A DNA stretch of 32,000 nucleotides. Source: Sphingobacterium daejeonense (lineage in GTDB: Bacteria > Bacteroidota > Bacteroidia > Sphingobacteriales > Sphingobacteriaceae). Below the pieces are notes generated by a model. The model was not told the DNA's origin. It did not search any database and saw only the letters and a program-made list of their open reading frames with translations. The DNA is taken from the NCBI RefSeq assembly GCF_042678525.1, contig NZ_JBHTKY010000007.1; one strand, written 5' to 3'. The position numbers were made by a program, and so were the translations under genes. Positions 4,426 through 24,843 of the stretch are shown piece after piece (the stretch's first letter is position 1; each line of letters begins with the position of its first letter).

Positions 4426-5214
4426 ATGTTCAAATCCTTGTTCAGAAAAAAAATAGAGATTCCAAGTCATGATGAGAATTGGCAGGTTTATTTTTCTCGA
4501 ATCAATAATCAAAAAGCTTCGGTAATCGTAGATCTGAATGTGGCAGATATTGCTCCAGTAAAAGACCTTCCTTTTGTTTTTTATTTGATTGTTCCTTATG
4601 ATTCTGCGGCGGAGGACGGTCTACCTACCATGGAGAGTTTTAAGCTCATCAATGAAGTTGAAGATAAGATTGCTGAACTAAAGGATAAATATACAAAGAA
4701 CCTACTGCATGTTGCAACGATAAGTATGAATGCAGAAAGGTTACAGATGTATTACTGCCATAAAATTTCTGACACTGAGGCGTTTTTACAACAGGTAGAC
4801 ATTGCATTCGGTGAACGCTTAACTTACCAGACCGATTATCGGGAAGACTTAAAATGGGATGATTTTTACGATCTAGCATATCCATTGCCTTTTCAGCTTG
4901 AAATGATCAAGAACAGAAGTGTCGTAAAAATGCTAATCGAGGCAGGGGATTCATTATCTCAAGCACGGCCGATCCACCATTATTTGAATTTTGTAGAGGA
5001 AAAAGATGTTGCTGACTTTTTGGAATTTGCAGAGAAGGAAGGGTTTGCAATACAATCCAAAGAAAAGGAACAGGACGGGTGGAAAGTGAGTATATCCCGG
5101 TCAGATTATATTTCCTATGAACATATAGATGATTTATGCTTACCCCTTTGGGAAAAAGCGGAAGCACATAACGGCCATTATGATGGATGGGAATCGCAAG
5201 TTATTTCAAATTAG
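4426..5214 (+). CDS. DUF695-like N-terminal domain fused to RraB-like (regulator of RNase E activity B / YjgD family) C-terminal domain
   Basis: The C-terminal ~85 aa (IHHYLNFVEEKDVADFLEFAEKEGFAIQSKE...WKVSISR...HIDDLCLPLWEKAEAHNGHYDGWES) follow the RraB pattern IEHHL..A...GY.V......YDGW. The N-terminal half resembles the DUF695 family that is often fused to it. Assignment from memory of the family, not from a search. Confidence 0.55.
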   Translation: MFKSLFRKKIEIPSHDENWQVYFSRINNQKASVIVDLNVADIAPVKDLPFVFYLIVPYDSAAEDGLPTMESFKLINEVEDKIAELKDKYTKNLLHVATISMNAERLQMYYCHKISDTEAFLQQVDIAFGERLTYQTDYREDLKWDDFYDLAYPLPFQLEMIKNRSVVKMLIEAGDSLSQARPIHHYLNFVEEKDVADFLEFAEKEGFAIQSKEKEQDGWKVSISRSDYISYEHIDDLCLPLWEKAEAHNGHYDGWESQVISN

Positions 5215-5244
5215 AATTATTAATCACATTAAAATAATATTACA

Positions 5245-5943
5245 ATGTTTATAAGTGTCCAAAGAGTAGAGGAGGCTTCGTTTTCGGCAGACCATCTTCA
5301 GAATCCAGTTAATCCCAATAATTTAATGGTTTTAGGTTTTTACAGGAATTATATGGGTACTGCATTCACCCAAAGTTACAATAAGAAAGCTGCGCCAATT
5401 TATTGGGATACCGTAACAGGGAAGACAATTTCAAGGAGGAAATGGACGGCAGAAATGAAATCTTATGCTGAAAAGTGTGCTACAGAAGTACCTCCTGCTC
5501 CATTTAAGTTTAAATTAACTGTAGTTGGTTATATTTTTATTGTTGCTATTATAGCTTTTTTCGCATATTTAACTTATGATTCTCTTAAACCACCTGCAAA
5601 TCCTTCTGCTATTGGTCCGACCGTATTAATGGAGAAAATGATGGCAGGAGATATTTATTATGGAAGATTTATAGAAATGGATACTAATTCCAGATTTTCG
5701 AAAAGGGCAGGATTCGGATGGTTCAAAGTCACAGATGCGGGCGACGAAATAGTGTCAATTTCGTTGAATAAAGAAATGAGTACTGCACACAAGCCTTCAG
5801 CTGAAATGAATAGCACTGATTTTGAATCTGAAACCATTCCTATGAAAATTAAAAGTCAAGAACCTTATCAGATTGACTTGGTTTCAGAAGATGGAACTAT
5901 TGAAATGAGTTTCTCGGAAAAGAAGATAAATCATGGCTCCTAA
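5245..5943 (+). CDS. Hypothetical single-pass membrane protein
   Basis: 232-aa ORF with one central hydrophobic helix (LTVVGYIFIVAIIAFFAYLTY). No recognisable motifs. The stop overlaps the next start by 11 nt (ATGGCTCCTAA, 5933-5943). Confidence 0.5.
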   Translation: MFISVQRVEEASFSADHLQNPVNPNNLMVLGFYRNYMGTAFTQSYNKKAAPIYWDTVTGKTISRRKWTAEMKSYAEKCATEVPPAPFKFKLTVVGYIFIVAIIAFFAYLTYDSLKPPANPSAIGPTVLMEKMMAGDIYYGRFIEMDTNSRFSKRAGFGWFKVTDAGDEIVSISLNKEMSTAHKPSAEMNSTDFESETIPMKIKSQEPYQIDLVSEDGTIEMSFSEKKINHGS

Positions 5944-6508
5944 AAAGGAATTATCTGCAAAGCGTGTGATAAAAATTGTTTTAACCTGTATTGTGGTTGG
6001 TTTTTTCTTGTTTGTGTTTTTCCTATTTCAAACTTGCAAGACTAAATCAACCAACATCGGAAATAAAGATCCATTCAAAGACTTGTTAGGGAAGGAGCTG
6101 GTTTTGAAACGGCCAGTGCGATTATTTATGGAGAAATATCCTACAAGGAAGTCGTTTCCTTATGTCATGGCAGATACGAATCTTTATAGTTGGCAAAGCT
6201 ATACTTCCGCATTACAAGCAACAGAACCTGAGATTAAGTTAGGCGATTCCATCCAGGAGAATTCAAAGGTTGTTTTTGAAAAGGCTACACAGTATACTAA
6301 TGGGGTATCAGGTTTTTCGAGGTCCAAATTGTTCGGAACATTAACCAGCACAGAAGGAAAGACATATCAAGTAGAGATGCAGTGGGGAGAATTGAATTCT
6401 AATCTTCCTTGGGAGGGGTCGGATAAGGCATATAGATTTGAATTGGCCCCTTGGCAGACAGAAAGAGATACGGCTTCGTATTATTTGCCAACAGCACAAT
6501 GGTGGTAG
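5933..6508 (+). CDS. Hypothetical N-terminally anchored protein; its last 13 codons lie in the left copy of the 40-bp direct repeat
   Basis: 191-aa ORF with an N-terminal anchor (IVLTCIVVGFFLFVFFLF). No recognisable domain. Overlapping start/stop with the upstream ORF suggests translational coupling. Confidence 0.5.
   Translation: MAPKKELSAKRVIKIVLTCIVVGFFLFVFFLFQTCKTKSTNIGNKDPFKDLLGKELVLKRPVRLFMEKYPTRKSFPYVMADTNLYSWQSYTSALQATEPEIKLGDSIQENSKVVFEKATQYTNGVSGFSRSKLFGTLTSTEGKTYQVEMQWGELNSNLPWEGSDKAYRFELAPWQTERDTASYYLPTAQWW
6468..6507. repeat. Left copy of perfect 40-bp direct repeat ATACGGCTTCGTATTATTTGCCAACAGCACAATGGTGGTA
   Basis: Read directly. Identical to 6950-6989. Encodes ..TASYYLPTAQWW, followed by TAG. 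Confidence 0.95.
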
Positions 6509-6511
6509 CGA

Positions 6512-6697
6512 TTAATTGACTGGAATAGATTCTCCTCTATCTTTTAATTCTTCAATATAGATTTCGATTGCTTCTTTTGCCATAGAAATTGCTTCGTCAA
6601 CATCTTGACCATAAGTGATGCAACCAGGTAAAGCTGGGACAGTAACGGTGTATCCTCCTTCCACTTCTTTATGTAAAAGTATTTTGTATGTGTACAT
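6512..6697 (-). CDS. hicB: HicB-family (UPF0150 / RNase H-like fold) type II antitoxin, short form without a DNA-binding domain; no hicA partner present
   Basis: MYTYKILLHKEVEGGYTVTVPALPGCITYGQDVDEAISMAKEAIEIYIEELKDRGESIPVN matches the HicB N-terminal domain pattern (..GGY.v..PdLPGC.t.G.t.eEA...akEAi..y.e.l...G..iP). I trimmed the track ORF (6512-6784, TTG start) to the ATG at 6695-6697 because the upstream 29 codons are AT-rich and promoter-like. Confidence 0.8.
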   Translation of the reverse strand: MYTYKILLHKEVEGGYTVTVPALPGCITYGQDVDEAISMAKEAIEIYIEELKDRGESIPVN

Positions 6698-6891
6698 TGT
6701 TTTCGAGCTGAAATTTCTATAAATAAAGCTTTTATGATTTATAAAATTAATGATTTGATTTAAGGTTAAGAAATATCCCATCAATTTTTAGCTTCGATTC
6801 TGACAAACAGGGATGGCCTTACGAACTGGCTGATATTCCCGCCAGTAACTCGTCGCGTCAATAGTGATCGGTGAGGGCACCGACGACGGAT

Positions 6892-6957
6892 TCGTGACTC
6901 TACCACGGCTAGACTACGGTCGTGATTCTAGAACGTCTTCGCGACTCTAATACGGCT
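6892..6957. repeat. Three imperfect 19-nt direct repeats, consensus TCGYGAYTCTANNACGKCT (6892-6910, 6920-6938, 6939-6957), inside a GC-rich non-coding block
   Basis: Aligned by eye: TCGTGACTCTACCACGGCT / TCGTGATTCTAGAACGTCT / TCGCGACTCTAATACGGCT. That is 3-4 mismatches pairwise. Units 2 and 3 are directly tandem, and unit 3 runs into the right 40-bp repeat copy. Confidence 0.8.
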
Positions 6958-6989
6958 TCGTATTATTTGCCAACAGCACAATGGTGGTA
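6950..6989. repeat. Right copy of perfect 40-bp direct repeat
   Basis: Identical to 6468-6507. Followed by A, giving TAA in the same frame as the duplicated peptide tail. Confidence 0.95.
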
Positions 6990-6996
6990 ATCATAC

Positions 6997-7052
6997 CTTA
7001 TGTCGTATGTCTTACGTCTTATGTCTTATGTCTACTGTCTACTGTCTACTGT
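6997..7052. repeat. Tandem heptamer array, 8 units (CTTATGT CGTATGT CTTACGT CTTATGT CTTATGT CTACTGT CTACTGT CTACTGT)
   Basis: Read directly. Exact 7-nt register. The array ends at the complement of the idi stop codon (CTA, 7053-7055), so on the minus strand AGACAGT/AGACATA units begin immediately after the idi stop. Confidence 0.9.
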
Positions 7053-7577
7053 CTAAAGAATGTCCTCAAAATCCATTTTTCCAAAAATCAGCTTAAACCA
7101 AAAGGTATAATTTTCTGGGTTTTCTTGCAGGTCTTTTTTAAGTTCATCCAGGCTGATGGATTTAATATCTTTAATTTCTTCAGGATTTAGATTGAAGTTG
7201 TTTTGGGAGAATTTTCCGATGAAAATATGGTCATACTCATTTTCCCATAGGCCATTTTCGAGTTTCTCTTCGTAACTAATCTGGAACACTTCATGAATGT
7301 CCACATGTATTCCCATTTCTTCAAAGGTCCTTCTTTTTGCAGCTTTTATAGTAGTTTCATTAGGTCTAGGGTGTCCACAGCATGCGTTTGTCCACAAGCC
7401 TGGGCTATGGTATTTTGAATCAGCTCTTTGCTGTAATATCATGTTATTATTCTCATCAAATAGAAATACCGAAAATGCTCTATGTTTTTTATTAAGTACA
7501 TGCGCTTCTTGTTTTTCCATTTCACCGATTTCTTGATCATTCTGATCAACCAATATCACAAATTCTTCTGGAGCCAT
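7053..7577 (-). CDS. idi: Isopentenyl-diphosphate delta-isomerase, type 1 (Nudix fold)
   Basis: HRAFSVFLFDENNNMILQQRADSKYHSPGLWTNACCGHPRPNETTIKAAKRRTFEEMGI parallels E. coli Idi (HLAFSSWLF...[21 protein letters not shown]...), including the catalytic Cys in TN.CCGHP and the Nudix-like E-rich helix. Confidence 0.9.
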   Translation of the reverse strand: MAPEEFVILVDQNDQEIGEMEKQEAHVLNKKHRAFSVFLFDENNNMILQQRADSKYHSPGLWTNACCGHPRPNETTIKAAKRRTFEEMGIHVDIHEVFQISYEEKLENGLWENEYDHIFIGKFSQNNFNLNPEEIKDIKSISLDELKKDLQENPENYTFWFKLIFGKMDFEDIL

Positions 7578-9521: not shown

Positions 9522-10625
9522 ATGAATAAATTATGTTTAAACATTTTTATAGTTGTAGCGTTGTTGCTCGCAGGATGTAAAAGTGGAGATAAAACCAATG
9601 AAAAGATTAGTGTTGAGGAAATTAAGTTGGACGAAAATTTATCTAAGATTATTTTCTCGATGCCGACTCATTGTATCGAAGTGGAGTATCCAAATAAACT
9701 GGGCCAAGTATTAGGTTCGGATGCTGACCTGAAAAGTCCAAAGAGTTTAAGGCCAGTTTTTTATGGTTGTTTTGACTGGCATTCCTCCGTACATGGTTAC
9801 TGGTCGATCGTAAAATTGATGAAGCAGTTTCCAAGTCTAGACAATGACGGAAAGGTAAGAGCGGCATTGAATCAGCATATTACGCCAGAGAATGTTGCTG
9901 TGGAATTAGCCTTTTTCAATGATAAAAATAATTTGAGCTTTGAAAGGACCTATGGTTGGGCTTGGTTGTTTAAATTACAGGAAGAATTGTCTACTTGGGA
10001 GGATGCGGATGCCAAAAGATGGAAAGCCTCACTTCAACCATTGGTAGACCTGTTGGTTACTCGCTATAAAGAATATCTTCCAAAGTTGGTCTACCCGATC
10101 CGTGCAGGACAGCATGATAATTCAGCTTTCAGTCTTTCTTTATCCTTGGATTATGCCAATACAGTAGGCGATGATTCTTTTAAACAAGCATTAAAGGAAA
10201 ATTCTATTCGATTGTTCAAGGACGACAAGAATTGTAATCTAGCTTATGAACCCAGCGGTTACGACTTTTTATCACCTTGTTTGGAAGAAGCATATTTGAT
10301 GAGCAAAGTCTTGGATAAATCGGAATACATTACATGGTTGAAAGCTTTTATGCCTGATTTATTCAATGATGAATTTAAATTAGAACCTGCAATCGTGAAA
10401 GATAGGAGTGATGGTAAGTTGGTCCACTTGGATGGGTTAAATTATAGTAGAGCGGCTTGTCTTTTTGGGATTTCGAAAATGGACCCTGCATTGGAGCACT
10501 TGAAAAAAGATGCTGTTGATCATTTCAATTTCTCGATCGGCAATTTAAGTGCAAAAGATGATTATATGGGAAGTCATTGGCTTGGGACTTTCGCTTTGTA
10601 TGCTTTAGGTAGATATGAGATGTGA
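9522..10625 (+). CDS. DUF2891-like protein, predicted lipoprotein
   Basis: Lipobox LLLAGC after MNKLCLNIFIVVA. The motif FYGCFDWHSSVHGYWS is one I associate with DUF2891. Start moved to the ATG at 9522, because the track start at 9480 precedes the signal peptide. Confidence 0.55.
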   Translation: MNKLCLNIFIVVALLLAGCKSGDKTNEKISVEEIKLDENLSKIIFSMPTHCIEVEYPNKLGQVLGSDADLKSPKSLRPVFYGCFDWHSSVHGYWSIVKLMKQFPSLDNDGKVRAALNQHITPENVAVELAFFNDKNNLSFERTYGWAWLFKLQEELSTWEDADAKRWKASLQPLVDLLVTRYKEYLPKLVYPIRAGQHDNSAFSLSLSLDYANTVGDDSFKQALKENSIRLFKDDKNCNLAYEPSGYDFLSPCLEEAYLMSKVLDKSEYITWLKAFMPDLFNDEFKLEPAIVKDRSDGKLVHLDGLNYSRAACLFGISKMDPALEHLKKDAVDHFNFSIGNLSAKDDYMGSHWLGTFALYALGRYEM

Positions 10626-10877
10626 GACAATAGACATAAGACAACAACATTAGACAGGCAAAGGCAAAAGACATAAGACATAAGACAAAAAATATAATAC
10701 AATATGCTTAAGACTATTGAGCCTTAGACTGCTAAGACGAAGACAATAGACAATAGGCTAAAGACATTTACGGCGTGATGCCATTTCTTATGTCTATTGT
10801 CTTATGTCTACTGTCTACATCAAACAATAGACATTTACGGCGTCATACCATTTCTTATGTCTAATGTCTATTTCTAC
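10626..10877. repeat. Composite intergenic repeat region: AGACAnn heptamers (10626-10687), mixed TAAGAC/AGACAATAG units, two 35-nt repeats (10762-10796, 10829-10863) and TGTCT-type heptamers (10787-10821, 10854-10877)
   Basis: Read directly. Fills the whole gap between two convergent stop codons (TGA 10623-10625 on plus, CTA 10878-10880 on minus). The 35-nt units AGACATTTACGGCGT[G/C]AT[G/A]CCATTTCTTATGTCTA differ at 2 positions. The left and right halves are mutually reverse-complementary heptamers. Confidence 0.85.
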
Positions 10878-11135
10878 CTATTCCGGTATGAGTCTATTTT
10901 CTGATAATTTGACTGGTACTCTTTGTATTTGAGTAAATCCGTCTTCGGTGCTGATTATTGCGGAGAGATCAATTCCTCGTTTAGATAAGGTGCTCAACAA
11001 AGCAGTTCTGAAAGCTGTTTTATTTTTTCCCCAGTTTGATCTAACTAAGTCATTGTTTAGAATTACCAATTCATTAGTGCTGTAGTGGTGGAATTGTTCC
11101 ACTAGATGTTGTTGTAAGGGTTTTGTGTTGGACAT
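10878..11135 (-). CDS. Small hypothetical protein
   Basis: 85-aa ORF from the ATG at 11133-11135 (MSNTKPLQQHLVEQF...). No recognisable motif. Coding status is supported only by length and its position downstream of rpoN on the same strand. Confidence 0.4.
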   Translation of the reverse strand: MSNTKPLQQHLVEQFHHYSTNELVILNNDLVRSNWGKNKTAFRTALLSTLSKRGIDLSAIISTEDGFTQIQRVPVKLSENRLIPE

Positions 11136-21723: not shown

Positions 21724-24700
21724 ATGACAGAAGGTAAAAGTATAAACTTGCTTAAAGCTGCGAAAGAGCTCAACATTGGAATAGGCACAGCGGTAGAATA
21801 TTTGGTTAAGAAAGGGTTTGATGTAGACTCTAAGCCAAGTTCTAAGTTGAGCCCTGAGATGTATGGGGTTCTTTTGAAGGAATTTCAGGGTGATAAGATT
21901 GTTAAAGACGAGGCTAAACAAATAGTTATCGGCAAGATTCGCCGTGAAGAAGGTCCAGCCACAGGCACAGCAAGTTCAAACCCTGAATCTACTGAAGAAA
22001 AGGAAAGTCCTGCTGAGGTTAAAGAAATCTTAATTAAGAATAATGCATCAACAGAGTCTACACCTGTTGCTGAAGAACCGAAGAAGGAAGAGGGAGGATC
22101 ATCTCCACTTAAAGTAGTTGGGAAGATCGATTTGGATAGCTTGAAGCGAGGAAAACCTGCACCAAAAGCTGAAGAAAAAGTCGAGAAACCAACAGAACCT
22201 GCTCCAAAGGCAGAGGTTAAGAAAGAAGAAGCTCCTGTTGCGAAACCAGTAGAAGAACCGAAAAAAGAAGAAGCACCGAAAGTAGAAGAGAAGAAACCTG
22301 TAGTTCAGGAGCCTGCAAAACCTGCACAACCTGTTCAACAAGCAAAACCTGTTCAACCGGAAAAAGCTGCTCAGCCAGAGAAAACTGAGCATACTGAAAA
22401 ACCTGAGAAATCAGAAAAGACAGAAAAACAACCTGTAGAGGTGAAAAAAAATATAGAAGTTGAAAAGCCTGCTGCAAAAGCAGAACCGACTGACGATGTT
22501 ATACGCGCTCGCTCGGAAACCTTAAGTGGCCCTAAAGTAGTTGGTAAAATCCAATTACCTGTTGCAAAACCACACAAACCAGTTGCTTCATCATCGAACA
22601 ATGCTGGTGGAAATCAAGACAACAAGCGTAAGCGCAAGCGTACTAACAAACCTAATACTCCGCATGGAGGACAGGGTAACCAAGGTGGTTATGGACAAAA
22701 CCAAGGTCAAGGCCAGGGTCAAGGTCAAGGTAACAGACAAGATGGTGGAAACCGTCCTCAACACCAAGGTCAAGGTCAACAAGGCAATAGACAAGATGGT
22801 GGAAATCGTCCTCCTCACCAAGGTGGAAATAGACCAAACCGTGGTAATCACCCTAACAATGACCGCCATGGAAACAATAGAGGTCGCAACGATAGAAACA
22901 GAAAGCCTGATACCCCGAAGGAAGAACCTTCAGAAAAAGAGATCCAAGATCAAATCAAGGCAACACTTGCTCGTTTGAGTGGTGCTGGTAAATCTGGTAA
23001 ATTCGCTCAACGTGCGAAACTGCGCCGCCAAAAACGTGATGATATAGCATTGTCAGCAGAAGAGGCAGCAATGGAGCAAGAAGCACAATCTAAAGTATTG
23101 CGCGTAACAGAATTCGTTACTGCCAACGAATTGGCAAATCTAATGGATGTTCCGGTTACTCAAGTTATTGCAACTTGTATGAGCTTAGGTATGTTCGTGT
23201 CGATCAACCAACGTTTGGATGCAGAAACTTTAGCGATCGTTGCTGATGAATTTGGATTCCAAATAGAATTTATCAAACCGGAGGATGAAGAGACTACCGA
23301 ATTGGAAGAGGCAGACAATACTAGCCGTCTAGTTCCAAGAGCTCCAATCGTAACTGTAATGGGTCACGTTGACCACGGTAAAACATCATTACTAGATTAT
23401 ATCCGTAAGGCTAATGTTACCAAAGGTGAAGCGGGTGGTATTACTCAGCACATCGGTGCATATGCAGTACAATTAGAAGGTGGTAAAAAGATTACATTCT
23501 TGGATACACCAGGTCACGAAGCCTTTACGGCGATGCGTGCTCGTGGTGCTCAAGTAACAGATATCGTTATTATCGTTATCGCTGCGGATGATGCCGTGAT
23601 GCCTCAAACAAAAGAAGCAATCAACCACGCTATGGCTGCAGGAGTACCTATTGTATTCGCATTCACTAAAGTGGATAAACCAGGAGCAAATGCTGATAAG
23701 ATCCGTGAGCAATTGTCAATGATGAATATCTTGGTTGAAGATTGGGGTGGTAAATACCAAGCTCAAGAGATTTCAGCTAAAACAGGTGAGAATGTTGACC
23801 TATTGCTTGAAAAAGTATTATTAGAAGCGGAATTATTAGAATTGCATGCTGACCCTGAAAAACGTGCGGCTGGTTCTGTAATTGAAGCTGCATTAGATAA
23901 AGGTAGAGGTATTGTAACTACTGTATTAGTTCAAGGTGGTACTTTGAAAATTGGAGATCCAATTCTTGCAGGTTCATACTCTGGTAAGGTTAAAGCTTTG
24001 ACCAATGAGAGAGGTGAGCGTGTGAAAGAAGCAGGACCTTCGATGCCAGTTCAAATCTTAGGTATGTCTGGTGCTCCAACAGCGGGTGATAAACTTTACG
24101 TTATGGAAAGTGAATCTGAAGCTCGTCAAGTAGCAAACAAACGTCTGCAACTTCAGCGTGAGCAAGGTATGCGTGCTACGAAACACATCACATTGGATGA
24201 AATCGGAAGACGTCTTGCAATCGGAAACTTTAAAGAACTTAATATTATCGTTAAAGGTGATGTGGATGGTTCTATCGAGGCATTGTCAGATTCATTATTG
24301 AAACTTTCAACTGATGAGATTCAGGTTAATATCATTCACAAATCAGTTGGTGCGATTTCAGAATCCGACGTATTGTTAGCTTCAGCATCTGATGCGATCA
24401 TTATCGGTTTCCAAGTACGTCCTACTCAAAATGCTCGTAAGCTTGCTGAGAACGAACAAATCGATATACGTCTGTACTCAATCATCTATGATGCGATTGA
24501 AGAGATCAAATCAGCGATGGAAGGTATGTTGGCTCCGAAACTTGAAGAGAAAATCGTTGCGGAAGTTGAAATCCGTGAGGTGTTCAAGATTTCCAAAGTT
24601 GGCTCAATTGCAGGATGTATGGTATTGGATGGTAAAATCAACCGTAACAATGAGATCCGTATTATCAGGGATGGCGTTGTTATCCATACAGGTAAGTTAG

Positions 24701-24843
24701 CTTCATTGAAACGTTTCAAAGATGACGTAAAAGAAGTATCTCAAGGTTATGAGTGTGGTTTGAGTATTGAAAGATTCAATGATATCCAAGAAAAAGATAT
24801 CGTGGAAGCATTCGAACAAGTAGAAGTAAAACGTAAGCTTTAA
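21724..24843 (+). CDS. infB: Translation initiation factor IF-2, with a long low-complexity K/E/P/A- and G/N/Q/R-rich N-terminal extension
   Basis: G domain motifs [20 protein letters not shown] and TKVDK, plus the conserved C-terminal domains. A nearly exact 36-nt duplication at 22735-22770 and 22789-22824 encodes [11 protein letters not shown]. Confidence 0.95.

Follow-up and report, generated by a model that had tools for sequence, protein, structure and literature searches.

Chromosomal integrons of Vibrio carry toxin-antitoxin (TA) gene cassettes, and IS1549 of Mycobacterium smegmatis, an element with a transposase and terminal inverted repeats, makes unusually long and variable target duplications. 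In experiments with Escherichia coli, DNA with homology at one end mostly recircularised and integrated by a single crossover, leaving 109-950-bp duplications of the segment of homology (PMC3240628), and a proposal exists that homology-facilitated illegitimate recombination underlies the C-terminal displacement seen in Rhs, contact-dependent inhibition (CDI) and type VI secretion system (T6SS) effector-immunity arrays (PMC5361080). Here we analyse an insertion in a 32,000-nt stretch of DNA from Sphingobacterium daejeonense (NCBI RefSeq assembly GCF_042678525.1, contig NZ_JBHTKY010000007.1; hereafter the window), in which a short hicB antitoxin gene and a GC-rich block lie between two copies of the 3' end of a gene for a 191-aa protein. 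A first-pass annotation, made from the sequence alone, had described this locus as an orphan hicB micro-cassette inserted at a stop codon between repeats resembling the attachment sites of an integrative element. The insertion and its duplication are supported by the relatives that we compared, whereas the attachment sites are not; the account that we favour, at a little under even confidence, is that the 482 bp may be the footprint of one old homology-anchored insertion-duplication by general recombination, followed by loss of the toxin gene.

The perfect 40-bp direct repeat ATACGGCTTCGTATTATTTGCCAACAGCACAATGGTGGTA is present at positions 6468-6507 and 6950-6989 with zero mismatches, as the annotation had stated; no third copy exists in the 32-kb window, even with up to 3 mismatches allowed, and dinucleotide-preserving shuffles gave no such repeat match (0/100). 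The left copy consists of 2 nt of an Asp codon, 12 full codons (TASYYLPTAQWW) and the TA of the stop, which is completed as TAG by the G at 6508; of the 13 codons originally ascribed to this copy, 12 are therefore complete and the thirteenth is partial. The right junction runs in the order described before: the repeat, an A that creates TAA, TCATACC, a 7-nt array at 6997-7055 and the stop of an idi-type gene at 7053. The 191-aa protein matched no Pfam family, and its homologues fall into 15 clusters spanning 170-192 aa, from which we conclude that its C-terminus is complete. Exact look-up returned no identical database records for the 191-aa and Idi proteins of the window.

The empty site predicted for related genomes was found in L002-L005, the closest 191-aa cluster (94% protein identity, 92-93% nucleotide identity in the gene), which comprises a 4.39-Mb metagenome contig and three shorter contigs. 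In these four loci a single 40-mer (...CAATGGTGGTAA) is followed by TCATACC, and it stands directly before ATCATACC, the heptamer array and idi, with a 62-nt spacer as in the window. The window and L002 are collinear on the two sides, at 95.8% over 5.6 kb and 94.6% over 5.1 kb, and in the distant relatives L006 and L010 (191-aa protein identity 74% and 65%) the gene is likewise followed directly by idi, with no hicB. The empty site thus supports an insertion at the stop codon accompanied by a 40-bp duplication.

The filled site is represented by two further assemblies, L093 (ENA, 898 nt, 97.8%), which runs from the gene end through the left repeat, hicB and the GC block and extends 34 nt into the right repeat, and L001 (JGI), which covers the left junction and hicB. 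Within the 191-aa gene, 7-17 positions distinguish the three carriers from one another and 25-44 set them apart from the empty-site strains, and the insert itself shows 2-3 single-nucleotide polymorphisms (SNPs) among them; there was thus one insertion, inherited in one lineage, and an artefact is very unlikely. That the duplication and insert are a mis-join of the assembly has, in our estimate, next to no probability: the complete right junction (the repeat and then TAATCATACC) is present in the window only, L093 ending 6 nt short of the repeat end, but the left junction is reproduced by two independent assemblies from other samples, each with its own SNPs, L093 reproduces the whole cargo together with the junction of GC block and repeat, and sequencing reads are longer than a 40-bp repeat. 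In L005 the site is empty and the 191-aa gene has an L002-type allele, yet this strain is near-identical to the window upstream of ~5700 (positions 5020-6507 were compared), a mosaic which shows that homologous recombination shifts filled and empty alleles between backgrounds. L093 has a ~70-bp patch of L002-type alleles at 6184-6250, and the mosaics of L005 and L093 together show that short recombination tracts are frequent in this population.

The insert between the repeat copies measures 442 bp, or 482 bp together with one repeat (coordinates in Table 1). Its minus-strand gene has a HicB domain (PF15919 HicB_lk_antitox, E=1.4e-15, scoring 58 bits where 27 is the cutoff), and the first-pass annotation was right to call it HicB-type, but it is not the complete antitoxin of an intact cassette: similarity ends at residue 59, where relatives go on DDSNTLEYSLNLExV, and in the loci examined the HicB proteins of relatives have 71-77 aa, mostly 74. 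DNA homology to full-length hicB genes stops at 6520-6521, 13 nt from the left repeat, and the minus-strand reading of the junction stretch 6508-6520 gives the Val-Asn-stop of the truncated protein. In most relatives examined a 65-69-aa ORF overlaps the hicB stop and is HicA_toxin where Pfam hits are on record; in the window there is no adjacent hicA, with only 4 nt between the hicB stop and the repeat. The earlier statement that recombinase, hicA and other cargo are absent holds. Judged by comparison with its relatives, the window hicB is a 3'-truncated, toxin-less, pseudogene-like remnant and not an active mobile cassette. The 12 residual nucleotides beside the left repeat may be the last hicA codon, its stop and a 3-nt spacer, as hinted by 2 of 67 hicA tails that match 8 of 9 nt; such a hicA tail would imply an internal deletion of ~240 bp in a once complete ~680-bp operon.

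Upstream of hicB, the AT-rich stretch 6698-6789 is probably the hicB promoter region, and beyond it lies the GC-rich block, which is non-coding as had been reported: stops in all six frames rule out protein coding, a structured RNA was rejected (best Rfam E=0.06, for the L13 leader at 20.5 bits against a gathering score of 38), and the block folds no better than shuffles (z-scores -0.23 and +0.92). The motif TCGYGAYTCTA has exactly three matches, all within 58 nt, and the rest of the window contains none, even when 1 mismatch is permitted. The block ends in three direct units that run up to the right repeat, and the decamer ACGGCTTCGT at the start of that repeat agrees with the first 10 nt of unit 1 at 9/10 positions, with just 1-2 matches over the remaining 7 nt of the unit. 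We regard this decamer as a likely microhomology at an illegitimate right junction.

To place the locus in its family, we searched proteins with the window hicB, which returned at least 846 relatives from Bacteroidota at E<=1e-20 and 75-90% identity, and scanned genomes for hicB relatives, which gave 305 loci, 80 of which (L013-L092, all Bacteroidota) were fetched. Flanking direct repeats were defined as blastn matches at E<1e-3 between the two 1.2-kb flanks, and mock cassettes placed elsewhere in the same loci served as controls. Such repeats flank 15/79 hicBA loci as against 6/203 control positions (Fisher p=2e-5), and 10/74 (p=0.002) without L094-L099, which we dropped because 5 of the 15 are one place and a dispersed ~140-nt element accounts for their repeats. 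Duplications of 44-141 bp of neighbouring DNA accordingly flank ~10 hicBA loci: L068 (141 bp, 96% identity), L063 (91 bp, 93%), L053 (76 bp, 91%), L016 (65 bp, 97%), L028 (63 bp, 89%), L038 (62 bp, 95%) and L081 (62 bp, 92%), with L019, L020 and L090 as weaker cases. The repeat-flanked units are 0.59-1.3 kb long and contain hicBA alone, sometimes together with a helix-turn-helix (HTH) gene. The DNA between repeat and operon has no homology from locus to locus, the ends of the cassettes not being conserved, and the nucleotide identity of hicBA across orders, 87-93%, stops between a few and ~50 nt beyond the coding region (3-50 nt upstream of the hicB start). The bare hicBA operon has thus been widely exchanged among orders of Bacteroidota. 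No integrase is among the families matched by at least 2 of 135 proteins within 5 kb, and the genes nearby have housekeeping roles. The idea that one cassette occupies several sites was considered and rejected, HicB on 72 contig blocks being at a single site in all 10 places shown; L119 and L120 have identical HicB in two contexts, at just 90% nucleotide identity.

In four loci, the window among them, the repeat boundary lies within 3 nt of the stop of the real gene, for which the chance expectation is ~2e-7. It falls inside the stop codon of the 191-aa gene in the window; in L068 the stop codon of pdxA is included in the repeat; in L063 the repeat extends to the stop codon of a sigma-factor-like gene plus 1 nt; and in L053 it ends one codon before the native stop of a secreted protein gene, the TAG being supplied from the cassette side. 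Gene and operon converge in the window, L068 and L053, where the orphan copy flanks the promoter side of the operon; in L063 they are co-directional. Between the gene and orphan copies of the older pairs (L063, L068 and L053) we counted 12 synonymous and 4 non-synonymous codon changes, a bias with p=9e-5 under neutral expectation, or p=0.01 when drift is confined to the orphan, which is compatible with an imported and a native allele that were both functional. The adjacency of hicBA and gene in L053 is shared with L088 at ~73% identity throughout, and L088 has no orphan copy, so that the donor-type arrangement (gene plus hicBA without orphan) is present for the L053 gene. Since the L053 orphan is 91% identical to the gene copy, as against ~73% for the adjacency, it is far younger than the adjacency and stems from a later import. 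On the strength of this age gap, the synonymous bias and a repeat that would end where the homology of donor and recipient ends, we argue that the inserted DNA probably brought its own copy of the gene end and that the repeat is not a staggered-cut duplication.

The same observations bear on a two-ended illegitimate capture, in which a random fragment would have entered a staggered break, or joined across sister chromatids 40 bp apart, with the duplication made by fill-in and no anchor involved. The cargo does resemble an arbitrary fragment, a cut gene with unrelated GC-rich DNA, and the microhomology at the right junction, the identical repeat copies and the lack of machinery all suit such an event; however, it explains neither the stop-codon junction here and those within 3 nt in three other loci, nor the synonymous bias of the older pairs and the age gap between L053 and L088, and we consider it decidedly unlikely. 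A mobile micro-cassette without its own recombinase would instead depend on an unknown trans-acting enzyme that makes a fixed nick at the stop and a second nick at a variable distance. It would account for the recurrence of this architecture, with its variable duplications, at ~10 independent hicBA loci, for the junctions at stop codons and for cross-order homology that stops near the coding region. Against it, conserved ends and inverted repeats are missing and the content of the cassettes varies, each exact HicB examined on many contigs stood at a single site, the window cargo has no second copy in the collections searched, and the synonymous bias and the L053/L088 comparison point to an imported copy, all of which makes it quite improbable. 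The first-pass annotation had listed an undescribed way of shuffling TA genes among its options: the shared architecture of other hicBA loci speaks for the idea, but general recombination fits them better than a new enzyme.

Machinery for mobility was sought in several forms. The 32-kb window has no recombinase or tRNA gene, its ORFs being core genes, and no reverse-transcriptase-sized ORF; a template/variable pair of a diversity-generating retroelement (DGR) was rejected, the window copies being identical and the differences elsewhere mostly synonymous transitions that are not adenine-specific. Terminal inverted repeats were not detected in the window or in 7 other cassettes, where end alignment was no better than shuffles. 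An attC-like inverted-repeat structure and an integron integrase were absent, and the repeat is host coding sequence. For the cargo outside the hicB coding sequence there was no match in 118 fetched loci, PLSDB plasmids, phages and viral contigs, and two metagenome pattern scans found none either, though they also missed the left junction known from JGI, so that the scanned collection does not hold these samples. The suspicion that the cassette might recur with other flanks was not borne out in the fetched loci, plasmids, phages and viral contigs searched; the cargo was seen at this one site only, in three assemblies. No other element bearing the 40-mer or the GC block turned up in the collections searched, the genome and metagenome scans being limited. 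The hicB family is absent from the viral contigs, and its best plasmid match (66%; NC_014750.1 2366-2542, Marivirga tractuosa, 4.9 kb) indicates that the family occurs on plasmids as well. There is no sign of current mobility, and the three carriers share one site and one lineage.

These results also bear on the interpretation of the repeats as attachment sites. The locus might be a decayed site-specific integrative element, similar to a cis-mobilizable element (CIME): a tyrosine-integrase island would have entered the 3' end of the 191-aa gene through an attP that carried a replacement end, and internal deletions would have left the DNA next to attR and a piece of hicB between an attL and an attR sharing 40 bp. 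Repeats that regenerate a gene end with the boundary at the stop are the by-design product of such integration, which explains the abutting, the empty site is a plausible attB, the three direct motif copies at the right repeat could be arm sites of a recombinase, and elements that have attL and attR but lack integration genes are a described category (PMC5704250). Flanking direct repeats that are single in the empty site do resemble attL/attR, but they are also expected under the rival mechanisms, and nothing links the two copies to a site-specific element as the first-pass annotation had supposed, no element sharing them being present in the collections searched. The window has no integrase and none recurs near the hicBA family; those collections yielded neither a related element or GC block nor the 40-mer in a second role; the other units target unrelated genes (pdxA, sigma-factor-like, secreted protein) and carry hicBA alone; each unit would require a separate integrase family and an independent decay to the same minimum; the left deletion endpoint would need to lie within 12 nt of attL; and the orphan copy of L053 is younger than the adjacency of hicBA and gene. 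We therefore hold a decayed integrative element to be unlikely, and a whole family of them is unparsimonious because there is no recurrent integrase, the targets are unrelated and the ends are not conserved.

Under the homology-anchored insertion-duplication that we prefer, a donor fragment from a related bacterium would have carried hicBA convergent against the stop of the 191-aa gene together with at least 40 bp of the gene end. The fragment would have been circularised by an illegitimate join, in which a repeated motif lying upstream of hicB met the gene over ~10 nt of microhomology (ACGGCTTCGT), and across the right junction the donor is predicted to have a fourth ACGGNTTCGTGAYTCTA unit. 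The circle might then have integrated through a single crossover in the 40-bp homology, in a Campbell-type event akin to homology-facilitated illegitimate recombination, and the product would have been the gene with a working end, hicBA, an orphan gene end and native downstream DNA. Later, a deletion of ~240 bp would have removed hicA and the last 15 hicB codons; alternatively, the fragment may have been truncated on arrival. Deletion of the toxin gene is the usual decay of a TA pair. The insert would now be an immobile relic, vertically inherited and polymorphic, which is shifted between strains by recombination in its flanks alone; were it to loop out, a circle of 482 bp would read the GC block, one repeat and then GCGATTAATTG. 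What we observe is the insertion, its duplication, the empty site, the truncation and the lack of mobility machinery; the circle, its homology anchor, the use of microhomology at the junction and the place of the deletion in the sequence of events are inferences.

Several points weigh against this account. The donor arrangement for the 191-aa gene was not found in the contexts read in three relatives, and 40 bp is near the minimum for a RecA-mediated crossover. The model leaves unexplained why hicBA abuts the donor stop in several independent cases, a problem that common compact convergent junctions merely soften: a spacing of at most 42 nt separates hicA from its convergent neighbour in 12/35 cases, 14/55 control convergent pairs lie at most 40 nt apart, and the tight spacing is thus not unusual. 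The motif beside the right repeat could be a set of recombinase-binding sites, and the synonymous bias could come from later homologous replacement of the gene-side copy. Finally, as a possible trace of a divergent imported tract, the window differs from L002 by 11.6% immediately to the left of the insert, but peaks of similar height are present in other places and the profile is not distinctive.

Table 1. Features of the filled site and its surroundings, with positions in the window
Feature	Position	Strand	Remarks
Target gene, 191-aa CDS	5933-6508	+	From the ORF list; function unknown; intact in the filled site, TAG stop
Left repeat copy	6468-6507		Functional 3' end of the 191-aa gene
Junction stretch, 13 nt	6508-6520		G of TAG, then 12 nt without homology to full-length hicB
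Truncated hicB, 61 codons	6512-6697	-	Residues 1-59 of a 74-aa HicB, then VN and stop; hicA absent
AT-rich leader of hicB, 22-25% GC	6698-6789	-	Recognised by composition; part of the insert
GC-rich non-coding block, 55% GC	6790-6949		160 bp, against a background of ~35% GC; origin unknown; part of the insert
Three direct units ACGG(N)TTCGYGAYTCTA	6886-6902, 6916-6930, 6933-6949	+	End exactly at the right repeat
Right repeat copy	6950-6989		Orphan gene end; runs on into native DNA (TAA, TCATACC); same as the single copy in L002-L005
ACGGCTTCGT at the start of the right repeat	6952-6961		Equals the first 10 nt of a would-be fourth GC-block unit, 19 nt after unit 3, in register
Native intergenic spacer	6990-7052		7-nt array (CTTATGT / TGTCTAC); 62-nt length equals that of the empty site
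Convergent NUDIX (idi-type) gene, 174 aa	7053-7577	-	Pfam NUDIX E=4e-21; same neighbour in L002, L006 and L010

Some further features of these loci were recorded in passing. Arrays of 7-nt units (TGTCTTA / TGTCTAC / CTTATGT), such as the one in the native spacer, occupy spacers between convergent genes at 6997-7055 and 10600-10870 of the window, at 5590-5640 of L002 and at 5577-5800 of L010; in the window they recur on both strands ~3.6 kb apart, and they form the stretch in which the window and L002 diverge most (21% at 10686-10935). Imperfect CAAGG-rich repeats of 12, 39 and 54 nt at 22691-22824, inside a 1039-aa ORF (21724-24843), are probably a low-complexity Gln/Gly-rich protein segment.

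The closest full-length relatives of the window hicB are those of L094-L099 and L120 (90% aa identity), which stand in arrays parted by the ~140-nt repeat. This element has internal hairpins and lies at 1141-1265, 1900-2007 and 2584-2722 of L094 (the same in L095) and at ~100-190 of L120; the order in L094 is R1-parDE-R2-hicBA-R3, similar to an integron or a cluster of attC sites lacking integrases (CALIN), with no integrase in view and no Rfam match. A relationship of the window upstream region to the ~140-nt element of L094 and L120 was considered and rejected, the similarity not being significant. In L013 (6001-8230), hicB and a degenerate hicA precede an orphan C-terminal toxin tip of Rhs type (415 aa) and an ORF of 174 aa, in a 2.6-kb unit bracketed by a 103-bp repeat of 93% identity. 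The pdxA locus (L068) was tried as a second empty site and proved uninformative: contigs with identical PdxA are all filled, and the DNA downstream in an 82% relative differs. In L068 / L110 (5054-9053) hicA is a frameshifted pseudogene. Past the orphan pdxA end of L068 follow an SMC_N-like ATPase of 576 aa and an MmeI-type restriction-modification enzyme of 1217 aa; L115 (PdxA 82%) lacks both, and the region beside pdxA looks like a small defence islet.

The locus is a clean natural example of such an insertion, with the filled and the empty alleles both seen. Together with ~10 related loci it indicates a simple route, in which an operon is carried along with part of an adjacent gene, enters by one crossover and leaves an orphan gene end behind. 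The scatter of solitary TA operons among housekeeping genes, far from mobile elements, is poorly documented; if the route is confirmed, part of the patchy distribution of TA genes would be explained without new enzymes, and annotators could recognise such imports by a signature, an orphaned 3' fragment of a gene next to a small operon. A more far-reaching possibility, to which we give only a small chance, is that Bacteroidota hicBA operons are hitch-hiking cassettes without a recombinase, which use a homology arm from a gene 3' end, loop out and enter again, in relatives, at the stop codon of that gene, or that an unknown activity in trans targets gene ends; the window would then hold a decayed member. 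If this were true, it would be a widespread and undescribed route by which TA genes spread among core genes. What is new here is less the window itself than the combination that recurs, a solitary hicBA operon, an orphan gene end and a stop-codon junction, which to our knowledge has not been described for TA genes.

Compared with known systems, the window ORF has the N-terminal fold signature of HicB in the type II HicAB family (PF15919 / PF07927), but lacks the last 15 residues and the toxin partner. Long, variable direct repeats of target DNA are shared with IS1549, whereas a transposase and terminal inverted repeats are not. With integron TA cassettes the family has in common small promoter-bearing TA units that are bounded tightly after the stop, and L094-L099 and L120 stand in ~140-nt-repeat arrays; the window differs in having no attC-like element or integrase, and in a repeat that is host coding sequence and single in the empty site. 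A CIME is likewise a short unit without recombination genes, bracketed by direct repeats of which the target gene's 3' end is part (PMC5704250), but here no parent element, matching integrase or accretion partner was found, the cargo ends are not conserved and related units occur at unrelated targets. In Rhs, CDI and T6SS arrays, as proposed for the loci studied here, a homologous stretch arrives together with new cargo and the resident 3' part is displaced downstream as an orphan (PMC5361080); there, a new C-terminal toxin domain alters the protein, whereas here the end is identical or synonymous and the cargo is a separate operon. Campbell-type insertion-duplication (PMC3240628) differs from the window in that the anchor here is 40 bp, the event natural and old, the cargo a TA operon and the circle deduced; both have a direct duplication of the anchor, of variable length, which in the window would likewise have formed with no site-specific recombinase and with one illegitimate junction.

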